From the NCBI GenBank assembly GCA_015064445.1, contig SVSE01000004.1, positions 131,393 to 163,392 on the forward strand: 32,000 nucleotides of DNA. Reading direction: 5' to 3'. The notes below the pieces were generated by a model. That model did no database searches. It was not told the DNA's origin and saw nothing but the letters and a program-made list of their open reading frames with translations. The DNA is from Oscillospiraceae bacterium (GTDB lineage Bacteria; Bacillota; Clostridia; Oscillospirales; CAG-272). This document shows positions 3,293 through 29,437 of the stretch, piece after piece (within the stretch, counting starts at the first letter, position 1; every line of letters starts with the position of its first letter). Made by a program: the position numbers and the translations under genes.

Positions 3293-3322
3293 AAAAACAG
3301 CCACTCCTGTGGCTGTTTTTTG
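3293..3322 (+). terminator. Intrinsic terminator after addA (AAAAACAGCCAC-tcct-GTGGCTGTTTTTT)
   Basis: A 7-8 bp GC-rich stem followed by a T-tract, starting 2 nt after the addA stop. The same stem sequence recurs at 26876 and 31975. Confidence 0.8.
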
Positions 3323-3339
3323 TTTGTATTGTAATGAAG

Positions 3340-3660
3340 CATTCCTCACGGACAAGCGTCCGAGGCAAATCCCGCGTTTGCTTAGTAAGTATTGAACAAC
3401 TCCCACGAAGCAATCTCATTCCGAATTCCGAATTGAAGAACCCAAGCTCGCTGTTCTTTCGAACAGGCTACTACGTAGCTTGTGAAAATCAAATAGCATT
3501 TTCACGCTTGGAACCTTGATACTCGCTTTCGCTCGTATACGCATTCTCATTCCGAGTTCGTCGCGAAGCGATTTCATCCAAGTTCTACTTGGATTTCATC
3601 CCAACGGGATTTCATCCACCTTGGTGGATTTCATCCCCTTCGCATTCCGAATTTCTGCCC
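3340..3660. repeat. Composite repeat region: module M, two direct ATTCCGA heptamer tracts and a 4-unit GATTTCATCC hairpin array
   Basis: Nt 3365-3434 closely match 11800-11870 (ggcaaatYccgc..cttagtaagtattgaacaac..cgaagcaatctcattccgaattccgaatt). GATTTCATCC cores lie at 3570, 3592, 3608 and 3627, separated by small palindromes. A second cattccgaattt tract lies at 3642-3654. Confidence 0.7.
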
Positions 3661-4252: not shown

Positions 4253-4270
4253 AATAACCTCCAATACAAG

Positions 4271-4608
4271 GTGCGGAGTGCGGAATGCGGAGTGCGGAAT
4301 GTGTTTGCACTCTTTTGTTTTCCATTCTCCTTGTCATTTGTGTTTTTATTAGCCTTCTCCAGTGGGAGAAGGTGGCAGTCATAGACTGACGGATGAGGTG
4401 TTCATTCTAAGTGAACCGGCTACGCAATGATTTCTCGCTTCGCGACGGATTGGCTCCTTTCGAGGAAGGTAGCGAAGCGGCATTTTGGTAGTGAATAACT
4501 CTCGGGGAGAGTTAGAGCCAAAATGGGACCGAGCCGCAGCGAGATACTGGCGCGTAGCGACTGAGGGATTGCTTCATTCCGCATTCCGAATCCCGCATTC
4601 CGAATTCG
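4271..4608. repeat. Cargo-less element bounded by inverted heptamer arrays (GTGCGGA(A) units at 4271-4303; CATTCCG units at 4575-4608)
   Basis: The arms are imperfect reverse complements. The interior is a chain of nested hairpins with no credible ORF. The right arm ends 1 nt before the rimO stop codon, and the left arm lies just upstream of the pgsA RBS. Confidence 0.7.
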
Positions 4609-6581: not shown

Positions 6582-6615
6582 ATTTTTCCTTTCAGGCATA
6601 GCCTGACGCGTTAAA

Positions 6616-6673
6616 GTGTGAAATGCGAGGTGCAAAGTGCGAAGTTCGACTCCGCAACCTCATTAATTCACAC
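6616..6673. repeat. Long hairpin built from GTGCGAA-type heptamers (recA-recX spacer)
   Basis: GTGTGAA (6616-6622) pairs with TTCACAC (6667-6673), and GAGGT (6627-6631) pairs with ACCTC (6657-6661). The interior contains gtgcaaagtgcgaagtt heptamer units. Confidence 0.55.
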
Positions 6674-6710: not shown

Positions 6711-6837
6711 TTCGATTGATTAGAACAAGTTAGGTTAGGCGCACCGGAAACTGCGGACGACGGCGTACTTGGTGTACGGTTAGGTCGCAGTTGAGGAGCA
6801 ACAACACATAACGCAGTTATAATCGGTCGAAATTAGT
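6711..6837 (-). repeat. Stop-codon-anchored imperfect-palindrome element, copy A1 (after recA)
   Basis: 127 nt. The flanks are identical to copy A2 (36 nt and 45 nt). The 16-nt terminal inverted repeats are ttcgattgattagaac (6711-6726) and gttataatcggtcgaa (6816-6831). The repeat runs through the recA TAA. Confidence 0.85.
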
Positions 6838-7942
6838 CTTCGAGTCCGAGCGCGCTAAGATCAAAATCCCCATTATCCAAAATGTCGTCCTCCATCTCTG
6901 GAGCTTCGCCATTAGCAAGCTTTGCTTTGATTTTTTCCTCAAGCTCTGCCATTATGTCAGGGCTTGCCTCAAGATGCGCCCTCATCTTGTCCTTACCTTG
7001 AATTTTTGTTTCGCCATAGGTAAAGAATGAGCCACTCTTTTCAACAATTCCGAGCTCGATTGCCATATCAACGATTTCAGTTGACTTGGAAATGCCCGAG
7101 CCATAGAGAATCTCGAACTCTGCTACCTTAAATGGTGGAGCAACCTTGTTTTTAACAACCTTTGCCTTAACTCTGTTACCGTAAGCCTCGCTTCCGTTTT
7201 TGAGAGTTTCGCTCTTTCTTATATCAATTCTAACCGATGCATAGAATTTAAGCGCGTTACCACCTGTTGTTGTTTCAGGATTTCCGTACATAACGCCTAT
7301 CTTGCTTCTGAGCTGGTTGATAAAGATAAGAATACAGTTTGTCTTGTTGATTGCACCTGCGAGCTTACGGAGCGCCTGTGACATAAGTCTTGCCTGTACG
7401 CCCATATGACTGTCGCCCATTCCACCCTCGATTTCCTGCTGAGGAACGAGTGCAGCAACGGAGTCAATTACAATTATATCCACAGCGCCAGAGTTTATAA
7501 GCGCCTCGGCAATTTCGAGTGCCTGCTCTCCATTATCTGGCTGTGAAACCAAAAGCTCGTCAATGTCAACACCGATAGCCTTTGCATATACAGGATCGAG
7601 TGCGTGCTCTGCATCGATAAATGCAGCAGTTCCTCCCTGCTTTTGGCTTTCTGCCACTGCGTGAAGTGCTATTGTTGTCTTACCTGATGATTCAGGACCA
7701 TAAATTTCAATAATTCTTCCCTTTGGAAGTCCACCTACGCCAAGCGCAAGGTCAAGGGAAAGAGAGCCTGTTGATACTGCACTGATTTTGATATCAGGAG
7801 CATCGCCCAAACGGATAATTGAGCCCTCGCCATTATCCTTTCTTATCTGAGCAAGTGCTGTTTCAAGGGCCTTTTTTCTCTGATCAGCTGTGCTTTCAGC
7901 TACGCCCTTTTTTTCAGTCTTTGCCGACTTCTTTGTTGCCAT
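6833..7942 (-). CDS. recA: Recombinase RecA
   Basis: 369 aa with Walker [10 protein letters not shown] and full-length RecA-like sequence ([20 protein letters not shown]..). Confidence 0.97.
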
Positions 7943-8093
7943 ATTTATTCCTTTCCGCGCGGTCGAGAGCCTCGACGGGCATCATCCGCGTTCGATTCTT
8001 TAATTTGCTTAGTCCTCACGAAGCAATTTTCACTTCGCATTCCGAATTTCATTACTTATTAAATTCGAGCAAAACTCGTATTTAAGTGTCTTT

Positions 8094-8207
8094 GTGCTAA
8101 ACAAGACAAGGCGCACCGGAAGAACAACGGACGACGGTGTATACTCATACTCCGAGGTCGGTGTTCGGGAGCAACGCAGTATTGTAACGCACAAAGCGCT
8201 TAAATTA
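8094..8207 (-). repeat. Stop-codon-anchored imperfect-palindrome element, copy B1 (after the lipoprotein gene)
   Basis: Shares caagacaaggcgcaccg..gacgacggtgtat..tactccgaggtcgg..cgggagcaacg with the reverse complements of 26362-26466 and 26722-26834. It begins TAATTTAAG at the gene's stop codon. Confidence 0.8.
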
Positions 8208-8768: not shown

Positions 8769-11309
8769 TTATTCAGCCTTTGGCGCATCCTCGGTAGCCT
8801 CTGGAGCTGTGTCTGTAGCATCTGCTACTACCTCGCCCTCGACTGCCTCGATTTCCTCTTCGTCTTCCTCTCTGTCTGTAAAGGTCATCTTCGCAACCTT
8901 ATTGCCCTCAGAGATTCTGATTACACGAACACCTGATGCGCTTCTATTATATACAGGAACCTCGTCAACATGAGTTCTTATAACAACACCTGCGTCGGTA
9001 ATTGCCATAATGTCATCCTCTACCGTTACAGCACCGATTGTTGCAAGCCTTCCTGTCTTATCGTTTACATTGTGTGCACGAACACCGAATATACCACGGT
9101 TTCTTGCCTCGAAGTCGCTAAACTCACTGCGCTTACCAAAGCCGTTTTCGGTAACTGTGAGAAGCTGCTTTGTATCATCAACGATAACTGCACCACAAAC
9201 CTCGTCATCTCCACGAAGCTCAATACCACGAACACCACGGGCAGTTCTACCAACGATAGAAACCTTGTCCTCGTTAAAGCGTACGCCCTGGCCGTTTCTT
9301 GATGCAATAAGAATATCGCTGTCGCCCTTAGTGTGTCCAACGAAGATAAGCTCATCGCCCTCGTCAAGATTGATTGCAATCTTTCCACCCTTGCGCTGAT
9401 ATTCATATTCCATAACTCTTGTGCGCTTAATTACGCCCTTGCGAGTTACCATTGTGAGATATTCATTCTCCTCGAAGGAATCAATTGCTATCATAGCAGT
9501 AACCTTTTCGCCCTTTTCGATTTCGATAATGTTGATAAGGTTAGCGCCCTTTGATGTTCTTGAGCCCTCTGGGATTCTATAAACCTTTCTTACGAAAATC
9601 TTACCATTGTCAGTAAACATAAGAAGGTGTGAGTGTGAATTTGCAACGAGAATGTTCTCAATGAAGTCCTCGTCCTTTGTGCCCATTGCGATAAGTCCCT
9701 TACCACCTCTGTGCTGTGCCTCGTAGGTGTCGGCAGGTACTCTCTTAATGTAGCCTGAATTTGTAAGAGTGATTACGCACTCGTGTCTTTCAATCAAGTC
9801 CTCAAGGTCGATTTCGTCCTCGCTGTCAACTATCTCTGTACGACGGTCGTCTGCGTATTTTCTCTTGATTTCCAAGAGCTCGCTCTTGATGATTTCTCTA
9901 ATCTTTTGTGGGTCAGCCAAGATACCGTTAAGCTCTGCAATAGTTGCGTGAAGCTTTTCAAGACGGTCCTCAACCTTTTGTCTTTCCATACCACTAAGGC
10001 GTCCGAGAGTCATTTCAACTATTGCCTGTGCCTGCTCATCACTTAGCAAGAAGCGCTCCGAGAGTCTTTCCTTTGCAACAGCTGTGCTTTCGCTTGAACG
10101 AATAATTGAGATTACCTCATCGATATTGTCAATAGCTATCTTATAGCCCTCGTAGATATGTGCCTCAGCCTGAGCCTTACGAAGCTCAAAGCGAGTTCTT
10201 CTCTCAACAACCTCCTCCTGGAACTTGATATACTCGCCCAAAATCTCACGAAGTCCAAGTGTCTTTGGCTCTCCGTTTACGAGCACGAGCATATTCATAG
10301 CGCAGGTGTCCTGAAGCTGTGTATTCTTGTAAAGCTGATTAAGAATTACCTGAAGGTTCGCATCACGGCGACACTCAATAACAATTCTCATACCAGCGCG
10401 TCCACTCTCGTCACGAATACCTGTAATTCCCTCTACGCGCTTGTCCTTAACGAGGTCAACCATCTTTTCGATAAGCTGGCTCTTGTTTACCATATAAGGG
10501 ATTTCAGTTACAACGATTCTGTGGTGCTCCTCATCACATTCAGCCTTGGAGCGAACTGCAACACGACCTCTACCTGTGGTGTATGCATCAAGAATTCCCT
10601 TCTTGCCATAGATTGTAGCATAGGTTGGGAAGTCTGGACCCTTTACATACTCCATCATTTCCTCAACTGTTGCCTCAGGATTGTCGATAAGATGAACTGT
10701 ACCGTCAATTACCTCGCCAAGGTTGTGCGGTGGAATATTTGTTGCCATACCAACTGCGATACCAACGCTTCCGTTTACAAGCACATTTGGGAAGCGAGAT
10801 GGGAGCACGGTTGGCTCCTTTCTCGAGTTATCGAAGTTAGGAACGAAGTCCACAACCTCTTTTTCGATATCTGCCATAAGCTCATTTGCGAGCTTAGACA
10901 TTCTTGCCTCTGTATAACGGTAAGCAGCAGCGCCATCGCCGTCAACATTACCGAAGTTTCCGTGTCCATCGATAAGTGGATGACGAAGTGAGAAGGGCTG
11001 TGCCATTCTTACCATTGTTCCGTATACGGCTTGGTCGCCGTGTGGATGATATCTACCAAGCACATTACCGACGGTTGTCGCCGATTTTCTAAAGGGCTTG
11101 TCAGATGTGAGGTGGTCCTCATACATTGCGTACATTACGCGTCTTTGTCCTGGCTTCATACCGTCACGAACATCAGGCAACGCACGGGAAACTATAACGC
11201 TCATTGAGTATTCAAGGAACGCTTCCTTTACTCTTGACTCAATGTTGCGATTTACTATCATCTGCTCGATATTCTCATAATCAAGCACATTGTGTTCTTT
11301 TTCTGCCAT
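8769..11309 (-). CDS. gyrA: DNA gyrase subunit A
   Basis: 846 aa with the active-site region [13 protein letters not shown], the N-terminal [18 protein letters not shown] motif, beta-pinwheel CTD repeats and an acidic tail. A GGAGGAG RBS lies upstream of ATG 11309. Confidence 0.97.
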
Positions 11310-11327
11310 ATGGCTCCTCCAATTGGC

Positions 11328-11885
11328 AAATGCGGAATTCGGAGTGCGGAATTCGGAATGTATCCGTTTCCTCTTCCTTGTCCGTTTTGCCTATCATTTA
11401 TTGTTTAAATTTTCCTTGGTGGTTTTGGTTATTGACACCAAAATACTACAAATTTCATCAATGTTATTGTATATGCTTTCAAATTCGTTTTGCGTAAGAT
11501 ATTCCGTTTTATACAGCAACCTTATCCAATAGCTTGTTTCGTTAGCTTCCTTCAAGGCAATGGTCATTTTTGTATAAAAATCCGCAGTTGTTTGAGCTTT
11601 TTGAGCCTCGAAAACATTTGCTCCCACGCTCGTTCCACACCTCAAAAGCTGTTTTGATAAAACCGTTTCTTTTTTCTTGGCTTTTAAGTAGTTGCACAGC
11701 TTTACTATTCTAACGGCGAAATCAAAGCTTTTTTCTTCTATTACATTTCCCATTTCGTTTCGCTCCAAATATCATTCCGCATTTCGCAGGCACGCGCCTG
11801 AGGCAAATTCCGCACTCACTTAGTAAGTATTGAACAACCCTCGCGAAGCAATCTCATTCCGAATTCCGAATTCCGCATTCCGAAT

Positions 11886-11887
<2 letters not shown>
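11328..11887 (-). mobile_element. Inverted-heptamer cassette 1 carrying a four-helix-bundle gene (IVS-like element)
   Basis: The left arm is aaatgcggaattcggagtgcggaattcggaatg (11328-11360). The right arm is cattccgaattccgaattccgcattccgaattt (11855-11887). They match 29/33 as reverse complements. The cargo is the CDS at 11394-11753 plus module M (about 11800-11854). Mobility is inferred, not shown. Confidence 0.55.
11394..11753 (-). CDS. Four-helix-bundle protein (23S rRNA intervening-sequence protein family)
   Basis: 119 aa with the family hallmarks FDFAVRIVKL..LLRCGTSVGANVFEA..KMTIALKEANET.YW. I prefer ATG 11753, which has a GGAG RBS inside the track's TTG-initiated extension. Confidence 0.85.
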   Translation of the reverse strand: MGNVIEEKSFDFAVRIVKLCNYLKAKKKETVLSKQLLRCGTSVGANVFEAQKAQTTADFYTKMTIALKEANETSYWIRLLYKTEYLTQNEFESIYNNIDEICSILVSITKTTKENLNNK

Positions 11888-13928
<2,041 letters not shown>

Positions 13929-14025: not shown

Positions 14026-14191
14026 GATGAATTGATGCTAACGCATCATGAATTCTCGCTTCGCTCCATGAATCGAATTGCAACACCAAATGCCGAAGGC
14101 AATTCATGCGATTTATCGCAATTCATGACACGCAGTGTCAATTCATGCAACGCAGTTGCAATTCATTGTGAAATAGCAGGAGCTATTTCAC
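14026..14191. repeat. Hairpin-chain array C1 (CATGAAT / AATTCATG cores)
   Basis: AATTCATG/T cores lie at 14101, 14120, 14140 and 14160 (spacing 19-20 bp), each followed by a 10-11 nt palindrome. The left half carries inverted CATGAAT cores. Homologous arrays lie at 17518-17677 and 29219-29437. Confidence 0.8.
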
Positions 14192-14428: not shown

Positions 14429-14433
14429 AGAAA

Positions 14434-14919
14434 GTTCGAAGTGCGAAACGCGAAGTGCGAAGTTATCTCTTGCACGGGCATTCTCGCATATCCTTTAGTT
14501 ATTTTTAGAAATATTTTCCTTTGTGGTTTTAGTTATTGCTACCAGCATTCCACAAATTTCTCTTGCATCCTTTTCTATACTTTCAAATTCGCTATCTGAA
14601 AGATAGTCGGTTTCGTGTAAAAGATTGATCCAATAAATGGTTTCGTTTGCTTCCTTTAATGCAATAGACATTTTTGCATAAAAATCGGGCTTTGATTGTC
14701 CTTTTTCGGCTTCAACTACGTTTGCGCCGATACTCGTTCCCGCCTTTAGAAGTTGATTTAAAAGAATCAAGTTGCTCTTTTTTTCTTTTAAGTGGTCGTA
14801 TAGCTTTACGATTCTGGTTGCGAATTTGAAGCTTTTTTCCTCTATAATGCTATTCATTTTCGCCACCAACCTTGAATTTCGCGTTTTCAACTTCGCACTC
14901 CGCACTTCGCACTTCACAC
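14434..14919 (-). mobile_element. Inverted-heptamer cassette 2 carrying a four-helix-bundle gene
   Basis: The left arm is gttcgaagtgcgaaacgcgaagtgcgaagtt (14434-14464). The right arm is cttcgcactccgcacttcgcacttcacac (14891-14919). They match about 24/29 as reverse complements, in TTCGCAC-type heptamer units. Mobility is inferred. Confidence 0.55.
14495..14857 (-). CDS. Four-helix-bundle protein (23S rRNA intervening-sequence protein family), paralog 2
   Basis: 120 aa (MNSIIEEKSFKFATRIVKL..GTSIGANVVEA..KMSIALKEANETIYW), by eye about 60% identical to the 11394-11753 product. ATG 14857 has a GGTGG RBS and overlaps the recF 3' end by 8 nt. Confidence 0.85.
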   Translation of the reverse strand: MNSIIEEKSFKFATRIVKLYDHLKEKKSNLILLNQLLKAGTSIGANVVEAEKGQSKPDFYAKMSIALKEANETIYWINLLHETDYLSDSEFESIEKDAREICGMLVAITKTTKENISKNN

Positions 14920-16019
14920 TTTATTTTCTTTCCCTCGGAAAGATAAATAAAGCTCGTATCGCTCGCCTCGAAATGCTGTGGCTCACACGAGGTAATTATT
15001 ACCTGTCGATTATTTATATTTGAGAGCACATATGCGCGCCTTGTTGGGTCAAGCTCGCTCAACACATCATCAAGTAAGAACACAGGATACTCTCCTGTAT
15101 GCTCCCTTGAAATCTCGCCCTCTGCCATTTTCATAGCCAAGGCAAGCGACCTCTGCTGTCCCTGCGATGCGTAAAGTCGTGCGTCCTTACCGTTTATCTC
15201 GATTTTTAAGTCGTCCTTGTGTATTCCAAACAAGGTTGCGCCATATTTGTATTCTCTTTCGAGATTCTCCGAAAGAAGAGTTGCGTATCTGTTTTTGAGG
15301 CTCTCGCGTGAGTCAAAATCAACGCCCTGTGCGTTGGTTTCGTATGTGATGCTCGGCGTCTCTGCCCCACTCGTCATTTGAGAAAAGAATTCCTTAACCC
15401 ACTTGTCGAGCTTTCTTACATATTCGCATCTCGCATTCGCAATATCAGAGCAAAGTGAGGCAAGCTCACTCGAATAAAAGTCAAGCGTATCTCTGTATTG
15501 CTCCCTCTCGGTTGGCTCCATCTTGAGTATCGCGTTTCGAGAGGACATTACATTGTTATATCTCGCCATTAGCTTGATATATACAGGCTTTAGCTGGCTT
15601 ATCGCAACATCGAGGAAGTTTCTCCTCACGCTCGGTGAGTCGCTTATAATTCCAAGATGCGACGGGCAAAATAGCACAGCCCTAAACTCGCCTATTATGT
15701 CGGCAGTCCTCTGCACCCTGTTGCCGTTCTTGTAAAACGCCTTAGATGCGCTCCTCGATATCTCAGCGCCTATCTTTGTCGTCTCCGAGCGCTTCTCATA
15801 CTCCATGAGCGCGTAGGCGACGCTTTTGTCGAACATTATCATTTCCTTGTCCTTGAACGCACGGAAGCTCTTTCCACGCGCAAAAAGATATATAGATTCG
15901 ACTATGTTCGTCTTTCCCTGAGCATTTCGCCCGTAAATTACATTAACCGTCGGCGAAAACTCTATCAGCTCCTCGTCTATGTTCCTAAACGAGGTCAATT
16001 TTATATTTTTTACTATCAT
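14850..16019 (-). CDS. recF: DNA replication/repair protein RecF (C-terminus extended into a repeat arm)
   Basis: Walker A GRNAQGKTN, signature SQGQQRS and Walker B FLLDDVLSELD. The last 24 or so residues (KCEVRSAECEVENAKFKVGGENE) are encoded by the heptamer arm of cassette 2. Confidence 0.9.
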   Translation of the reverse strand: MIVKNIKLTSFRNIDEELIEFSPTVNVIYGRNAQGKTNIVESIYLFARGKSFRAFKDKEMIMFDKSVAYALMEYEKRSETTKIGAEISRSASKAFYKNGNRVQRTADIIGEFRAVLFCPSHLGIISDSPSVRRNFLDVAISQLKPVYIKLMARYNNVMSSRNAILKMEPTEREQYRDTLDFYSSELASLCSDIANARCEYVRKLDKWVKEFFSQMTSGAETPSITYETNAQGVDFDSRESLKNRYATLLSENLEREYKYGATLFGIHKDDLKIEINGKDARLYASQGQQRSLALAMKMAEGEISREHTGEYPVFLLDDVLSELDPTRRAYVLSNINNRQVIITSCEPQHFEASDTSFIYLSEGKKIKCEVRSAECEVENAKFKVGGENE

Positions 16020-27441: not shown

Positions 27442-27745
27442 TTTATTGCCTCCTTACATATATAAGTACATATATATTATAGCACATTATCTCGTTATAG
27501 TCAATCTTTTATATAAATTGTTGACAAAATCAACAAAATAACACGAAAAAATGCAAAAACGCCCAAAATTCCACCGAAAGAGGCTAAAAAATCGAATTTT
27601 GCTCAAAAGAATCCACAACAAAATTATTTTTGACACCGTATATTCGGCAAAATAATTAGTCGAGAAATGATAAAATGAAAATGTGAGCAAAATAAAGGCT
27701 CGCAAAAATAAAAATAGCCGAGAAAAAACAAGGAGAGGACAAAAA

Positions 27746-28549
27746 ATGAGCATTTACTGCCAAAAAGCACCACAAAAAACCGAGGAAACCGTAAAAATGA
27801 TAGAAATTTCTCGAATTTCTGTCAATCCAAACCAACCACGAAAGGTATTTGCCCACGAGGCAATACTAAAATTAGCCGACAGTATTCGTCAATATGGCGT
27901 GATTCAGCCACTTTGCGTGCGAAAAATCGGAGAAAATTACGAGCTAATATCAGGAGAAAGACGCTTGCGCGCATCAAAGGAGCTTGGGCTTTGCACTGTT
28001 CCCTGCGTGATTATGGACATAAATGAGGCAAAAAGTGCCGAAATTTCCATAATTGAGAACCTAATTCGAGAGGATTTGAACATTTTTGAGCAAGCTGGAG
28101 CTATTGAGACGCTAATAGATACATACGGTCTTACGCAGGAGCAAATAGCCAAAAGGCTCTCTAATAGCCAATCATTTGTAGCAAATAAGCTTAGACTTTT
28201 GCGCATATCTAACTCTGAAAGAGAAAAAATCCTTGAAAATAACCTTACGGAGCGCCACGCAAGAGCTCTTTTGCGTATACTTGATACAGATTTGAGAGAA
28301 AAAACACTCGAAAAAATCATAGCAGATGGGCTCAACGTGTCGAAAAGCGAGGAATTAATCGAGCAAATTTTATCAAATGATGAGCCAAAAAAGCAAAAGC
28401 CAAGGCAAATAAAGGATATGAGCGCCTTTTACGCATCGATTGATAGGCTTGTAAATTCGGTAAAGCAATCGGGAATAGATGTAAAAAGCAGAGTAATCGA
28501 GGGCGATGAATTTACAGAACTGACAATTTTAGTACCAACTATGAGATGA
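27746..28549 (+). CDS. ParB/Spo0J-family paralog (Noc-like position upstream of soj)
   Basis: ParB N-terminal domain with PNQPRK and the GERRLRAS box, plus an HTH region (QEQIAKRLSNSQSFVANKLRLL). I prefer ATG 27746, which has an AGGAGAGG RBS, over the track's GTG at 27683. Confidence 0.8.
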   Translation: MSIYCQKAPQKTEETVKMIEISRISVNPNQPRKVFAHEAILKLADSIRQYGVIQPLCVRKIGENYELISGERRLRASKELGLCTVPCVIMDINEAKSAEISIIENLIREDLNIFEQAGAIETLIDTYGLTQEQIAKRLSNSQSFVANKLRLLRISNSEREKILENNLTERHARALLRILDTDLREKTLEKIIADGLNVSKSEELIEQILSNDEPKKQKPRQIKDMSAFYASIDRLVNSVKQSGIDVKSRVIEGDEFTELTILVPTMR

Positions 28550-28551
28550 AA

Positions 28552-28567
28552 TGTTTCACGTGAAACA
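28552..28567. promoter_or_regulatory. parS: parS site 1 (TGTTTCACGTGAAACA, perfect consensus)
   Basis: Exact 16-bp palindrome, 3 nt after the stop of the ParB-like gene. Confidence 0.9.
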
Positions 28568-28618: not shown

Positions 28619-28634
28619 TGTTTCACGTGAAACA
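28619..28634. promoter_or_regulatory. parS: parS site 2 (TGTTTCACGTGAAACA)
   Basis: Exact 16-bp palindrome. Confidence 0.9.
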
Positions 28635-28785: not shown

Positions 28786-28801
28786 TGTTTCACGTGAAAC
28801 A
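28786..28801. promoter_or_regulatory. parS: parS site 3 (TGTTTCACGTGAAACA)
   Basis: Exact 16-bp palindrome. Confidence 0.9.
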
Positions 28802-28989: not shown

Positions 28990-29173
28990 TATAAAGCGAG
29001 CAAGGCTCTCAGACGAGAGCTGACTCGAAACAAAAATAGGCACTATTGACAACCCGAAATCGCCAAAAACAGCTCAAAAAGCGAAAAAATACGCGATTTT
29101 TGCACCAATAATGCCTAAAAAGACTCATTTTTAACATATTTTATAGAAAATTGTTGACAAGTCAACAATTTAA

Positions 29174-29207
29174 GTGCGAAATGCGAAATGTGAAATGCGA
29201 AGTGAAT
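29174..29207. repeat. Heptamer tract (GTGCGAA/ATGCGAA/ATGTGAA units), solo arm
   Basis: The sequence is gtgcgaaatgcgaaatgtgaaatgcgaagtgaat, with the same unit type as the cassette 2 arms. I found no inverted partner in the window. Confidence 0.6.
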
Positions 29208-29218
29208 TAGGAGAGTCA

Positions 29219-29437
29219 ATGAATCGATGCTATCGCATCACGAATTCTCGCCACGCTCCATGAATTGGCTTACGCCATGAATTGAATTGCAACATAGCCT
29301 CCATCTGACGAGGGAGGTGGCTTGCGAAGCAAGACGGAGGGAGAGATTTCCCTATGCCAAAGGCAACTCGCGCGATTTATCGCAATTCATGACACACCGT
29401 GTCAATTCACGCAACCGTAAGGTTGCAATTCATTGCA
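29219..29437. repeat. Hairpin-chain array C3 (AATTCATG cores) with an internal insertion of about 65 nt
   Basis: It is collinear with C1 and C2, with cores at 29384, 29404 and 29427. An extra segment at 29296-29360 contains a CCTCC..GGGAGGTGGC hairpin. The array ends 26 nt before the soj ATG. Confidence 0.8.

Follow-up and report, generated by a model that had tools for sequence, protein, structure and literature searches.

In a 32,000-nucleotide (nt) stretch of DNA from an Oscillospiraceae bacterium (contig SVSE01000004.1; "the window" below means this whole stretch), the spacer between gyrB and gyrA carries an insert that we assign to a family of cassettes of the intervening-sequence (IVS) type. 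The source is an uncultured rumen or hindgut Clostridia (Eubacteriales) bacterium. Such a cassette, as we picture it, comprises a gene for a four-helix-bundle (4HB) protein of about 120 amino acids (aa) between two inverted arrays of typically five heptamers A[A/G]T[T/G]NNN. Members are oriented in sense with the host transcription units that hold them, and the cassette described here showed no clear promoter or terminator. The cassette family is large and cross-phylum, not a local curiosity. Bacterial IVSs have been known since about 1990, with their origin unexplained, and structures of the S23p / IVS-protein family have been solved since 2006-2007. We put the probability that the insert belongs to this family, and was inserted between gyrB and gyrA, at about 0.9, and the chance that RNase III cuts the predicted stem in the gyrB-gyrA mRNA, which is argued by analogy, at about 0.5; the single figure for both together, about 0.6, is a compromise between the two.

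All genes of the cassette region lie on the minus strand, and gyrB and gyrA are both called at equivalog-level NCBIfam scores. Read in the direction of transcription, the 576-nt spacer and the adjoining host genes are organized as follows:

11886-13904, minus strand: gyrB, the upstream host gene (NF004189, 953.9 bits; TIGR01059, 914 bits).
11855-11887, minus strand: 5′ arm, purine-rich, with five AAT[T/G] cores at 7-nt spacing (in mRNA sense AAATTCGGAATGCGGAATTCGGAATTCGGAATG).
11768-11854, minus strand: leader module M, from the 5′ arm to the Shine-Dalgarno sequence of 4HB#1.
11394-11753, minus strand: 4HB#1, gene for a 119-aa protein of the S23p / IVS-protein / four-helix-bundle family (PF05635 and TIGR02436).
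11361-11393, minus strand: purine-rich 3′ tail (taggcaaaacggacaaggaagaggaaacggata), from the 4HB#1 stop codon to the 3′ arm.
11328-11360, minus strand: 3′ arm, pyrimidine-rich, five units (CATTCCGAATTCCGCACTCCGAATTCCGCATTT), ending 7 nt ahead of the gyrA Shine-Dalgarno sequence.
8769-11309, minus strand: coding sequence of gyrA, the downstream host gene (8769-11320 with its Shine-Dalgarno sequence; NF004043, 1141.7 bits).

An earlier, sequence-only reading of this DNA had described two 33-nt arms matching in 29/33 positions as reverse complements, each made of four to five tandem heptamers, one overlapping the gyrB TAA and the other stopping 7 nt short of the gyrA GGAGGAG, together with a 119-aa open reading frame (ORF) of the IVS-protein family and a recurring module M. 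These particulars stand. An inverted-repeat search returned the same 29/33 (88%) complementarity, rising to 23/24 (96%) when the register is shifted by one heptamer, and Tandem Repeats Finder reports a period of 7 in both arms, with 4.4 copies in the 5′ arm and 4.6 in the 3′ arm. The window has 18 copies of the two-unit heptamer pattern ATTCCGMATTCCGM at no more than 2 mismatches, versus 1.26 expected; 0/100 shuffles reach 18. The gyrB stop codon TAA occupies 11886-11888 and is overlapped by the 5′ arm, which starts at 11887; at the opposite end, the 3′ arm (to 11328) is followed by the 7 nt gccaatt, by GGAGGAG (11314-11320) and by the gyrA ATG at 11309. A full copy of module M is found at about 3340-3417, adjoining an array at 3418-3434, and a partial one at about 7990-8050. 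Its hairpin CAGGC-gcgt-GCCTG (11787-11800) is preserved in other copies via compensatory changes, as judged from an alignment with 3300-3445 and 7935-8060 of the window and with the related locus L087 (L numbers denote loci from other genomes and contigs). Homologues of the tail at 11361-11393 are present in L087, in a cassette remnant in L007 and in an ORF-less cassette of the window itself. The identical gyrB-gyrA locus was recovered on at least 23 independently assembled metagenome contigs and is therefore not an assembly artefact.

The protein 4HB#1, whose gene has its own Shine-Dalgarno sequence (GGAG, 11763-11766), matches PF05635 with 95.5 bits (E=2.7e-27, cut-off 33.8) and TIGR02436 with 110.4 bits (E=4.9e-32, cut-off 24). 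With the solved member 2RLD of Bacteroides thetaiotaomicron it shares 56% identity (E=1e-37) and the motif GxxRxxxSxxxNxxE. A monomer model computed with AlphaFold2 has four helices at a predicted local distance difference test score of 96.3; its template-modelling score is 0.87-0.90 to 2RLD and 0.69-0.80 to 2GSC of Xanthomonas campestris, and it also superposes on Avd of the diversity-generating retroelements. Both the 2RLD and the 2GSC entries have chains A-E. The ratio of nonsynonymous to synonymous substitution is 0.05-0.08 between the 4HB genes at the gyrB-gyrA site, a comparison in which the synonymous sites are largely saturated, and 0.15 between the window's two paralogues; the former values indicate strong purifying selection. 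In fold, motif and identity, 4HB#1 is thus a regular member of TIGR02436/PF05635, families which, unlike the cassettes, are annotated as protein only, without flanking arms as a family property.

The site itself has a history of insertion and loss. A scan with one genome per species returned 80 relatives, and in about 30 of these (GyrB identity 79-85%) the gyrB-gyrA spacer measures only 17-37 nt and reads essentially TAA-GGAGG-ATG. A related 4HB gene (75-89% identical) with similar arms sits in the spacer of L008, L087 and L088/L089. From L007, which is 97% identical in GyrB, the 4HB gene is gone, leaving a purine-rich 3′ tail and a five-unit 3′ array (L007 3340-3410). All five units of that array have changed from the ATTCCGM type seen at 11328-11393 of the window to the ACTTCGC type, a concerted switch that suggests array replacement or gene conversion between cassettes. 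In L009-L012 the spacer is occupied by other palindromic elements. Because even the closest relatives differ from each other here, we conclude that the spacer was invaded in an ancestor of the clade and has kept turning over ever since. As a side observation, the 5′ array of the L088 cassette (2740-2870 and 3350-3580) runs to about 15 units, and its 3′ end (tail plus 3′ arm) is duplicated, which shows that arms slip and duplicate. In or beside the cassettes of L087 (2800-2900), L088 (2860-2950) and L010 (8080-8190) stands a conserved module, about 85 nt long (...acaccccaagaacRcgag...cgcgattggctRgtggaagccatgca...gcgaagcgagtcgca), that may be a structured RNA.

The arms proved to be a property of the family rather than of this locus. 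For a survey, 80 diverse metagenome 4HB loci (47-67% identity) were fetched, 78 of them unique and testable; the sampled loci cover one subfamily of PF05635, reaching as low as about 32% identity to the query, and are phylogenetically not independent of each other. For each locus, the 350 nt on the upstream side of the ORF were compared with the 350 nt on its downstream side, and the highest-scoring ungapped inverted repeat was counted as a pair of arms if it scored 16 or more and both arms had period 7. Inverted period-7 arms were found in 59/78 loci, and most of the remaining ones carry weaker or rearranged heptamer arrays, while 0/76 control ORFs of similar size from the same loci reach a score of 16 (maximum 12). 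The heptamer conforms to A[A/G]T[T/G]NNN in 48/48 cleanly delimited arrays. Its NNN part varies by locus (29 distinct heptamers), yet within any one cassette the NNN of one arm always complements that of the other. The length distribution of the arrays has a sharp peak at 31-33 nt; five is the modal core count per arm (25/48 and 27/48) and (5,5) the commonest pair, within a span of 3 to more than 20 units.

Location and composition of the arms are likewise regular. The upstream neighbour is co-directional with the 4HB gene in 66/69 loci and the downstream neighbour in 55/65. In 15/59 loci the 4HB start codon is part of the last 5′ unit or directly adjoins it (...AATG); in 20/59 the same holds for the stop codon and the first 3′ unit (TAATT...). 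Relative to the ORF, arm polarity is fixed: the 5′ arm contains 42% A, 23% G and 8% C, the 3′ arm 43% T, 21% C and 8% G. T is nearly absent from the NNN of the 5′ unit (7/144), and no 3′ arm has an ATG. This fixed polarity, rich in A and G on the 5′ side and in T and C on the 3′ side, points to a strand-specific constraint at the level of the sense RNA.

Two loci from other operons illustrate the design. Between ilvN and ilvC (L091), a 4HB gene is enclosed by complementary arms of the heptamer AATTAGG; between aspS and a DUF512 gene (L094) the heptamer is AATGCGG, and a single odd AGTACGG unit is mirrored in the opposite arm. In L094, moreover, the aspS stop codon TGA falls within a variant heptamer, AATGAGG. 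Period-7 arrays stand beside the 4HB gene in 8/8 named organisms from four phyla (Treponema, Bernardetia, Nostoc, Anabaena, Euhalothece, Planktothrix, Gloeocapsa and Chlorohelix), with clear inverted arms in 7/8 and a more complex arrangement in Treponema; in Euhalothece the array is (CACTGGT) x12. Among viral contigs, 9/17 have period-7 arms at the 4HB gene. On one viral contig, L191, the inverted arrays around the 4HB gene have a period of 8 (AAATTTGT), not 7.

Two other roles for the heptamers were considered and discarded. As frame-independent pads of stop and start codons they hold up only partly, with stops in all three frames in 23/59 5′ arms and in none of the window arms. Mimicry of Shine-Dalgarno and anti-Shine-Dalgarno sequences, suggested by GGA/TCC in the local heptamers, fails to generalise to other types such as AATTGAC.

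True 23S IVSs are represented by L115 and L166, two sense-orientation 4HB ORFs inside bacterial large-subunit rRNA genes (RF02541), with arms built of AGTTGAC/AGTGGAT/AGTTGAA units. In Coxiella burnetii, an IVS in helix 45 carries an S23p ORF (PMC4990558). Three tandem copies of GACAGAT and one degenerate copy stand just before the S23p start codon there, in a copy number that varies by strain, and RNase III excises the IVS, with the 5′ cut at the start of the first heptamer (PMC4990558). Since the arms of L115 and L166 are alike in their A[AG]T[TG]NNN units and the Coxiella description matches, the mRNA cassette and the classical 23S IVS are the same kind of element. Both the gyrB-gyrA cassette and the IVSs with S23p ORFs (Coxiella; Leptospira IVSs) have a protein of the same family encoded in sense within a host transcript, enclosing inverted repeats, tandem heptamers before the ORF, and a sporadic distribution with empty sites. 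The gyrB-gyrA cassette differs in lying in an essential protein-coding operon, not in helix 25 or 45 of 23S rRNA, and in having the extra leader module M. RNase III processing, demonstrated for Coxiella, would apply to the gyrB-gyrA locus by analogy.

On these grounds (empty sites, arms tied to 4HB genes, the family match, and true IVSs with the same arms) the IVS-like cassette that the sequence-only reading had proposed is well supported. Empty sites in relatives and a link between arms and 4HB genes elsewhere were what that reading had expected to find; both are present, the latter already in a second cassette of the window. It had also suggested folding the two arms as RNA. They pair in the minimum-free-energy and in the centroid fold of the gyrB-gyrA region, and the calculated duplex free energy is -37.1 kcal/mol versus -11.3 +/- 3.3 kcal/mol for shuffled arms; across the cassettes of the window, values of -37 to -48 kcal/mol compare with -11 to -17 kcal/mol after shuffling.

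In the transcript, pairing of the arms would give a helix of about 30 bp with the cargo looped out. Only about 7 nt would then separate the gyrB stop codon from the Shine-Dalgarno sequence of gyrA, a distance similar to the native one, so that the insertion would be tolerable in an operon that is essential and probably subject to translational coupling. The Coxiella analogy makes the helix a likely substrate of RNase III, and cleavage would separate the gyrB and gyrA cistrons and free a 4HB mRNA with a purine-rich heptamer-array leader. We infer that the stem forms in vivo and affects gyrB and gyrA expression. A promoter and terminator scan of 11200-12000 gave no clear excess (3 promoter-like and 1 terminator-like signals versus 1.9 and 0.6 in shuffles); a weak hairpin at 11777-11789 was considered as a terminator and is not credible within an essential operon. 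At gathering thresholds, Rfam models matched only a tRNA in the whole window, with no known RNA family in any cassette and no rRNA.

Several observations weigh against this picture or limit it. The 601-nt region as a whole folds no better than its shuffles (z = -1.2), and only the terminal stem is robust. Mismatches between arms are G:U in 39 cases and A:C in 32, which is no G:U excess; the complementarity therefore carries no RNA-specific signature, and by itself makes RNA pairing and DNA-level symmetry indistinguishable. Many mismatches (G:A, 37) fall on the T/G position of the core, and in L130 arrays stand on both sides of the gene that are mutually non-complementary; pairing is therefore not the sole constraint on the arms. 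At least one viral contig (L195) shows reversed polarity. Cutting the mRNA of an essential operon could be harmful, and the stem might instead be shielded from cleavage. Finally, the Coxiella ORF is decaying and probably untranslated, unlike 4HB#1 with its purifying selection and its own ribosome-binding signal. Pairing alone does not explain the arms, because a conserved core, a modal number of five units and a purine/pyrimidine polarity are also present; these features fit a second role as a putative binding array for a pentameric protein.

The first alternative builds on this second role. The arms would chiefly be putative binding sites for the cassette's own 4HB pentamer, one heptamer core per protomer, with pairing and RNase III secondary. 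A pentamer on the single-stranded 5′ array, and perhaps on the 3′ array, would regulate translation of its own mRNA, shield the stem or lay it open, or build a ribonucleoprotein needed for spread. We regard this as possible but on the doubtful side. It is compatible with the IVS-type cassette and could be its missing half. The agreement of numbers speaks in its favour, as the typical five units per arm and the length peak meet solved relatives that are homopentamers (2RLD, 2GSC; S23p, a toroidal homopentamer, PMC4990558), although unit numbers from 3 to more than 20 blur the match, five units amount to about three turns of an RNA helix and so could reflect needs of the stem, and the pentamer is known from relatives, whereas 4HB#1 itself was modelled as a monomer. 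The core AAT[T/G] is invariant while NNN is free, AATT recurring on both arms because it is its own reverse complement. The fixed strand polarity, the start codons in or abutting the last 5′ unit, the arrays retained without complementarity in L130, and solo arrays of the same types upstream of host genes point in the same direction.

Support for RNA binding by free-standing family members comes by analogy from Avd, a pentameric barrel of the same fold (4DWL, 8UB7; pentamer also in bioRxiv 10.1101/2023.10.23.563531) whose specific RNA target is a non-coding segment adjacent to the Avd gene (PMC6182149). 4HB#1 is only 18% identical to Avd, reaches 20.9 bits with the bAvd profile PF22296, below the cut-off of 40, and the window's 4HB proteins, with isoelectric points of 8.7 and 6.1, are not strongly basic, unlike Avd. 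Pfam scans of the main ORFs of the window gave no reverse transcriptase domain, and no pair of template and variable repeats was noticed.

Functional parallels exist among ring-shaped RNA-binding regulators, namely TRAP with 11 GAG/UAG repeats and HutP with UAG-N4 repeats at 7-nt spacing. As proposed for the arms, these repeats stand in the leader of the regulated gene and their number equals that of the protomers; the folds are unrelated to 4HB, and binding in the present case is argued by analogy.

Cyanobacterial short tandemly repeated repetitive (STRR) heptamers are intergenic tandem heptamers as well. TAACTGA heptamers occur between genes of Beggiatoaceae, Cyanobacteria and Bacteroidetes, with function unknown (PMC4679880). 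Both types share with the arms a period of 7, 2-6 copies, an intergenic location and a position often few nt from a start codon; solo 3′-type arrays upstream of remA in relatives of our bacterium hold the same position just before the start codon as TAACTGA arrays. The reverse complement of TAACTGA, rotated, is AGTTATC and fits A[AG]T[TG]NNN. Unlike the arms, these heptamers are described as direct repeats that have neither a partner array nor a link to 4HB genes. TAACTGA itself is absent from the window, and only the pattern class, intergenic tandem 7-nt repeats near start codons, matches. A broader proposal, which we offer tentatively and consider rather unlikely, is that free-standing S23p/4HB is a ring-shaped repeat reader with one protomer per A[A/G]U[U/G]-N3 heptamer and five per arm, that gene and arms form a mobile cassette riding operons and rRNA across phyla and phages, and that orphan STRR/TAACTGA arrays are its decayed footprints or trans targets.

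A DNA transposon of the miniature inverted-repeat transposable element (MITE) type is an improbable explanation. Here the arms would be terminal inverted repeats recognized by a transposase or recombinase encoded elsewhere, with 4HB as passenger cargo. Terminal inverted repeats are indeed present, though as tandem heptamers, and like MITEs and REP/BIME palindromes (repetitive extragenic palindromic sequences and bacterial interspersed mosaic elements) the cassettes are short, non-autonomous, palindromic and intergenic, with ORF-less derivatives bearing the same arms (4270-4607 in the window; the arm-arm hairpin between recF and remA in L087) and in spacers that are hotspots for several families of palindromic repeats. 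Presence, absence and replacement at one site among close relatives, the missing G:U excess, and cassettes in viral contigs and on plasmids agree with such an origin. Yet no transposase was found in or near any cassette examined, and no target-site duplication is visible at the junctions, without a sufficiently close empty site for exact comparison. Co-orientation with the upstream gene in 96% and the fixed polarity are unexpected of a symmetric DNA repeat, although selection after insertion could give an orientation bias, and a conserved gene under strong purifying selection as near-universal cargo sets the cassettes apart from MITEs and REP/BIME elements.

Domestication appears still less probable. 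The cassette would no longer be selfish and would tune the stoichiometry or stability of gyrB and gyrA, e.g., as a processing site or translational insulator. At least four species-level lineages have kept it at this one site, with a conserved 3′ tail and arm and an ORF largely saturated at synonymous sites; this would fit such a role, as would the same 7-nt gap between the 3′ arm and the downstream Shine-Dalgarno sequence at gyrA and pgsA. However, the closest relatives (L007, L009-L012, L017) have lost it or carry something else in its place and show no compensating change, and cassettes of this type in unrelated operons and in rRNA are easier to reconcile with a promiscuous passenger than with a regulator specific to gyrase. 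Chance low-complexity sequence or misassembly, for which only the general tendency of short tandem repeats to mis-assemble could be cited, is already refuted by the identical contigs from different samples, the excess of pattern copies and about 100 independent loci.

Much of the IVS-type cassette is already known: IVSs with S23p ORFs, their excision by RNase III, the Coxiella heptamers, pentameric structures and 23S_rRNA_IVP genes in CRISPR loci. In the openly searchable full-text literature, which excludes subscription literature, 4HB genes are linked to heptamer arms in the single description of Coxiella only. Within that scope, four points are apparently new: the complete cassette resides in operons that encode proteins (gyrBA in the present case); the whole family, in several phyla as well as on viral contigs, shares the inverted arms of five heptamers; derivatives exist that lack the ORF or are reduced to solo arrays; and the unit count matches the pentamer. 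If nearly all family members have inverted arrays of about five heptamers matching the pentamer, this would provide a concrete cis element for a protein family that, to our knowledge, is without known function. The IVS concept would extend from rRNA to mRNA, with the same cassettes riding operons that encode proteins and, in this instance, standing between the two subunits of an essential enzyme. A candidate origin would also emerge for the heptamer repeats that abound between genes in cyanobacteria and giant sulfur bacteria. There are also consequences for genes regarded as defence-associated: 23S_rRNA_IVP genes often appear within CRISPR loci (PMC3936711), and 4HB genes wedged into CRISPR, DISARM, BREX and restriction-modification operons may be misread and could be passengers, so that the published 'CRISPR-associated' 23S_rRNA_IVP may reflect passenger insertion, not function. 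On plasmids of Anabaena, Planktothrix, Chlorohelix and Gloeocapsa (L181-L184), 4HB cassettes are wedged into defence operons at the sites cas2/cas1, DISARM drmD/BREX pglX, helicase/N6-methylase, and DUF1156 gene/HEPN gene.

The window covers a replication-origin region with the gene order dnaA, dnaN, recF, remA-like, gyrB, gyrA, hypothetical, recA, hypothetical, MiaB-like and pgsA-like, and with ParB-like, ParA and ParB genes on the other side. Besides the gyrB-gyrA cassette it contains another complete cassette with a 4HB gene, a cassette that lacks an ORF, and five solo arrays:

14431-14922, minus strand: second complete cassette, in the recF/remA-like spacer, with the 5′ arm at 14889-14922 (AAAGTGTGAAGTGCGAAGTGCGGAGTGCGAAGTT) and the 3′ arm at 14431-14464.
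14495-14857, minus strand: 4HB#2, gene for a 120-aa protein (PF05635, 5.8e-26).
4270-4607, minus strand: ORF-less cassette between the MiaB-like gene (stop codon 4609-4611) and the pgsA-like gene (ATG 4252).
3340-3657, minus strand: truncated pieces downstream of pgsA, without an ORF and without a 3′ arm.
8016-8049, minus strand: solo 5′-type array of three units, joined to the first part of module M and lying some 70 nt ahead of recA.
6614-6649, minus strand: solo 3′-type array of five ACTTCGC-type units, located past recA and shortly before the gene that follows.
29172-29204, plus strand: solo 5′-type array of five units AAGTGCG/AAATGCG, upstream of parA.

The arms of the second cassette reach an inverted-repeat score of 19 and a duplex free energy of -48.1 kcal/mol. 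RecF (14850-16019) reads through its 5′ arm and ends 4 nt past the ATG of 4HB#2 (overlap ATGAATAG): a C-terminal extension of 23 codons spans the heptamers (14850-14922), and the stop codon TAG (14850-14852) overlaps the 4HB#2 start, which suggests translational coupling. Relatives show empty junctions at the recF-remA site, a minimal arm-arm hairpin (L087), or solo 3′-type arrays abutting the remA start codon. The latter are pyrimidine-rich, e.g., five CATTTTG or CACTAAC units directly 5′ of the start codon (L019 5439-5476, L022 4920-4955, L009, L010 and L017), and the species that have them contain no 4HB gene in the recF-remA spacer.

The ORF-less cassette begins 1 nt past the MiaB-like stop codon, and its 3′ arm ends 7 nt ahead of the downstream GGAGG. 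Its arms (5′ arm 4575-4607, 3′ arm 4270-4303) have five units each and a duplex free energy of -40.9 kcal/mol, and enclose 271 nt of non-coding cargo. The truncated pieces downstream of pgsA consist of a solo 5′-type array (3637-3657), a run of ~20-nt units of 'ATGAAATC + hairpin' (about 3575-3640), and the short 5′-type array at 3418-3434 followed by the full copy of module M.

Palindromic elements with arms of tandem ~20-nt units (a small hairpin plus CATGAATTG or ATGAAATC) lie at 29233-29430, directly after the array upstream of parA, at 14118-14166 and at about 3575-3640. They also occupy the gyrB-gyrA spacers of L009, L010 and L011, and occur at L010 3450-4320. In L010 such arms flank a 4HB gene, and they may for that reason be a variant of the heptamer arms. 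A second repeat family, found by alignment and missed by ungapped repeat finding, is an imperfect long hairpin of about 115 nt (z = -3.1) at 8085-8205 and 6725-6840 of the window. It inserts directly behind stop codons (ATTTAA|GCGC...) and fills the gyrB-gyrA spacer in L007 (3200-3325) and L012 (7965-8085). Finally, the interval that separates the ParB-like gene (27683-28549) from the parA/parB pair (29433 onwards) contains three perfect copies of the parS consensus TGTTTCACGTGAAACA (28552-28567, 28619-28634 and 28786-28801), where none is expected by chance.

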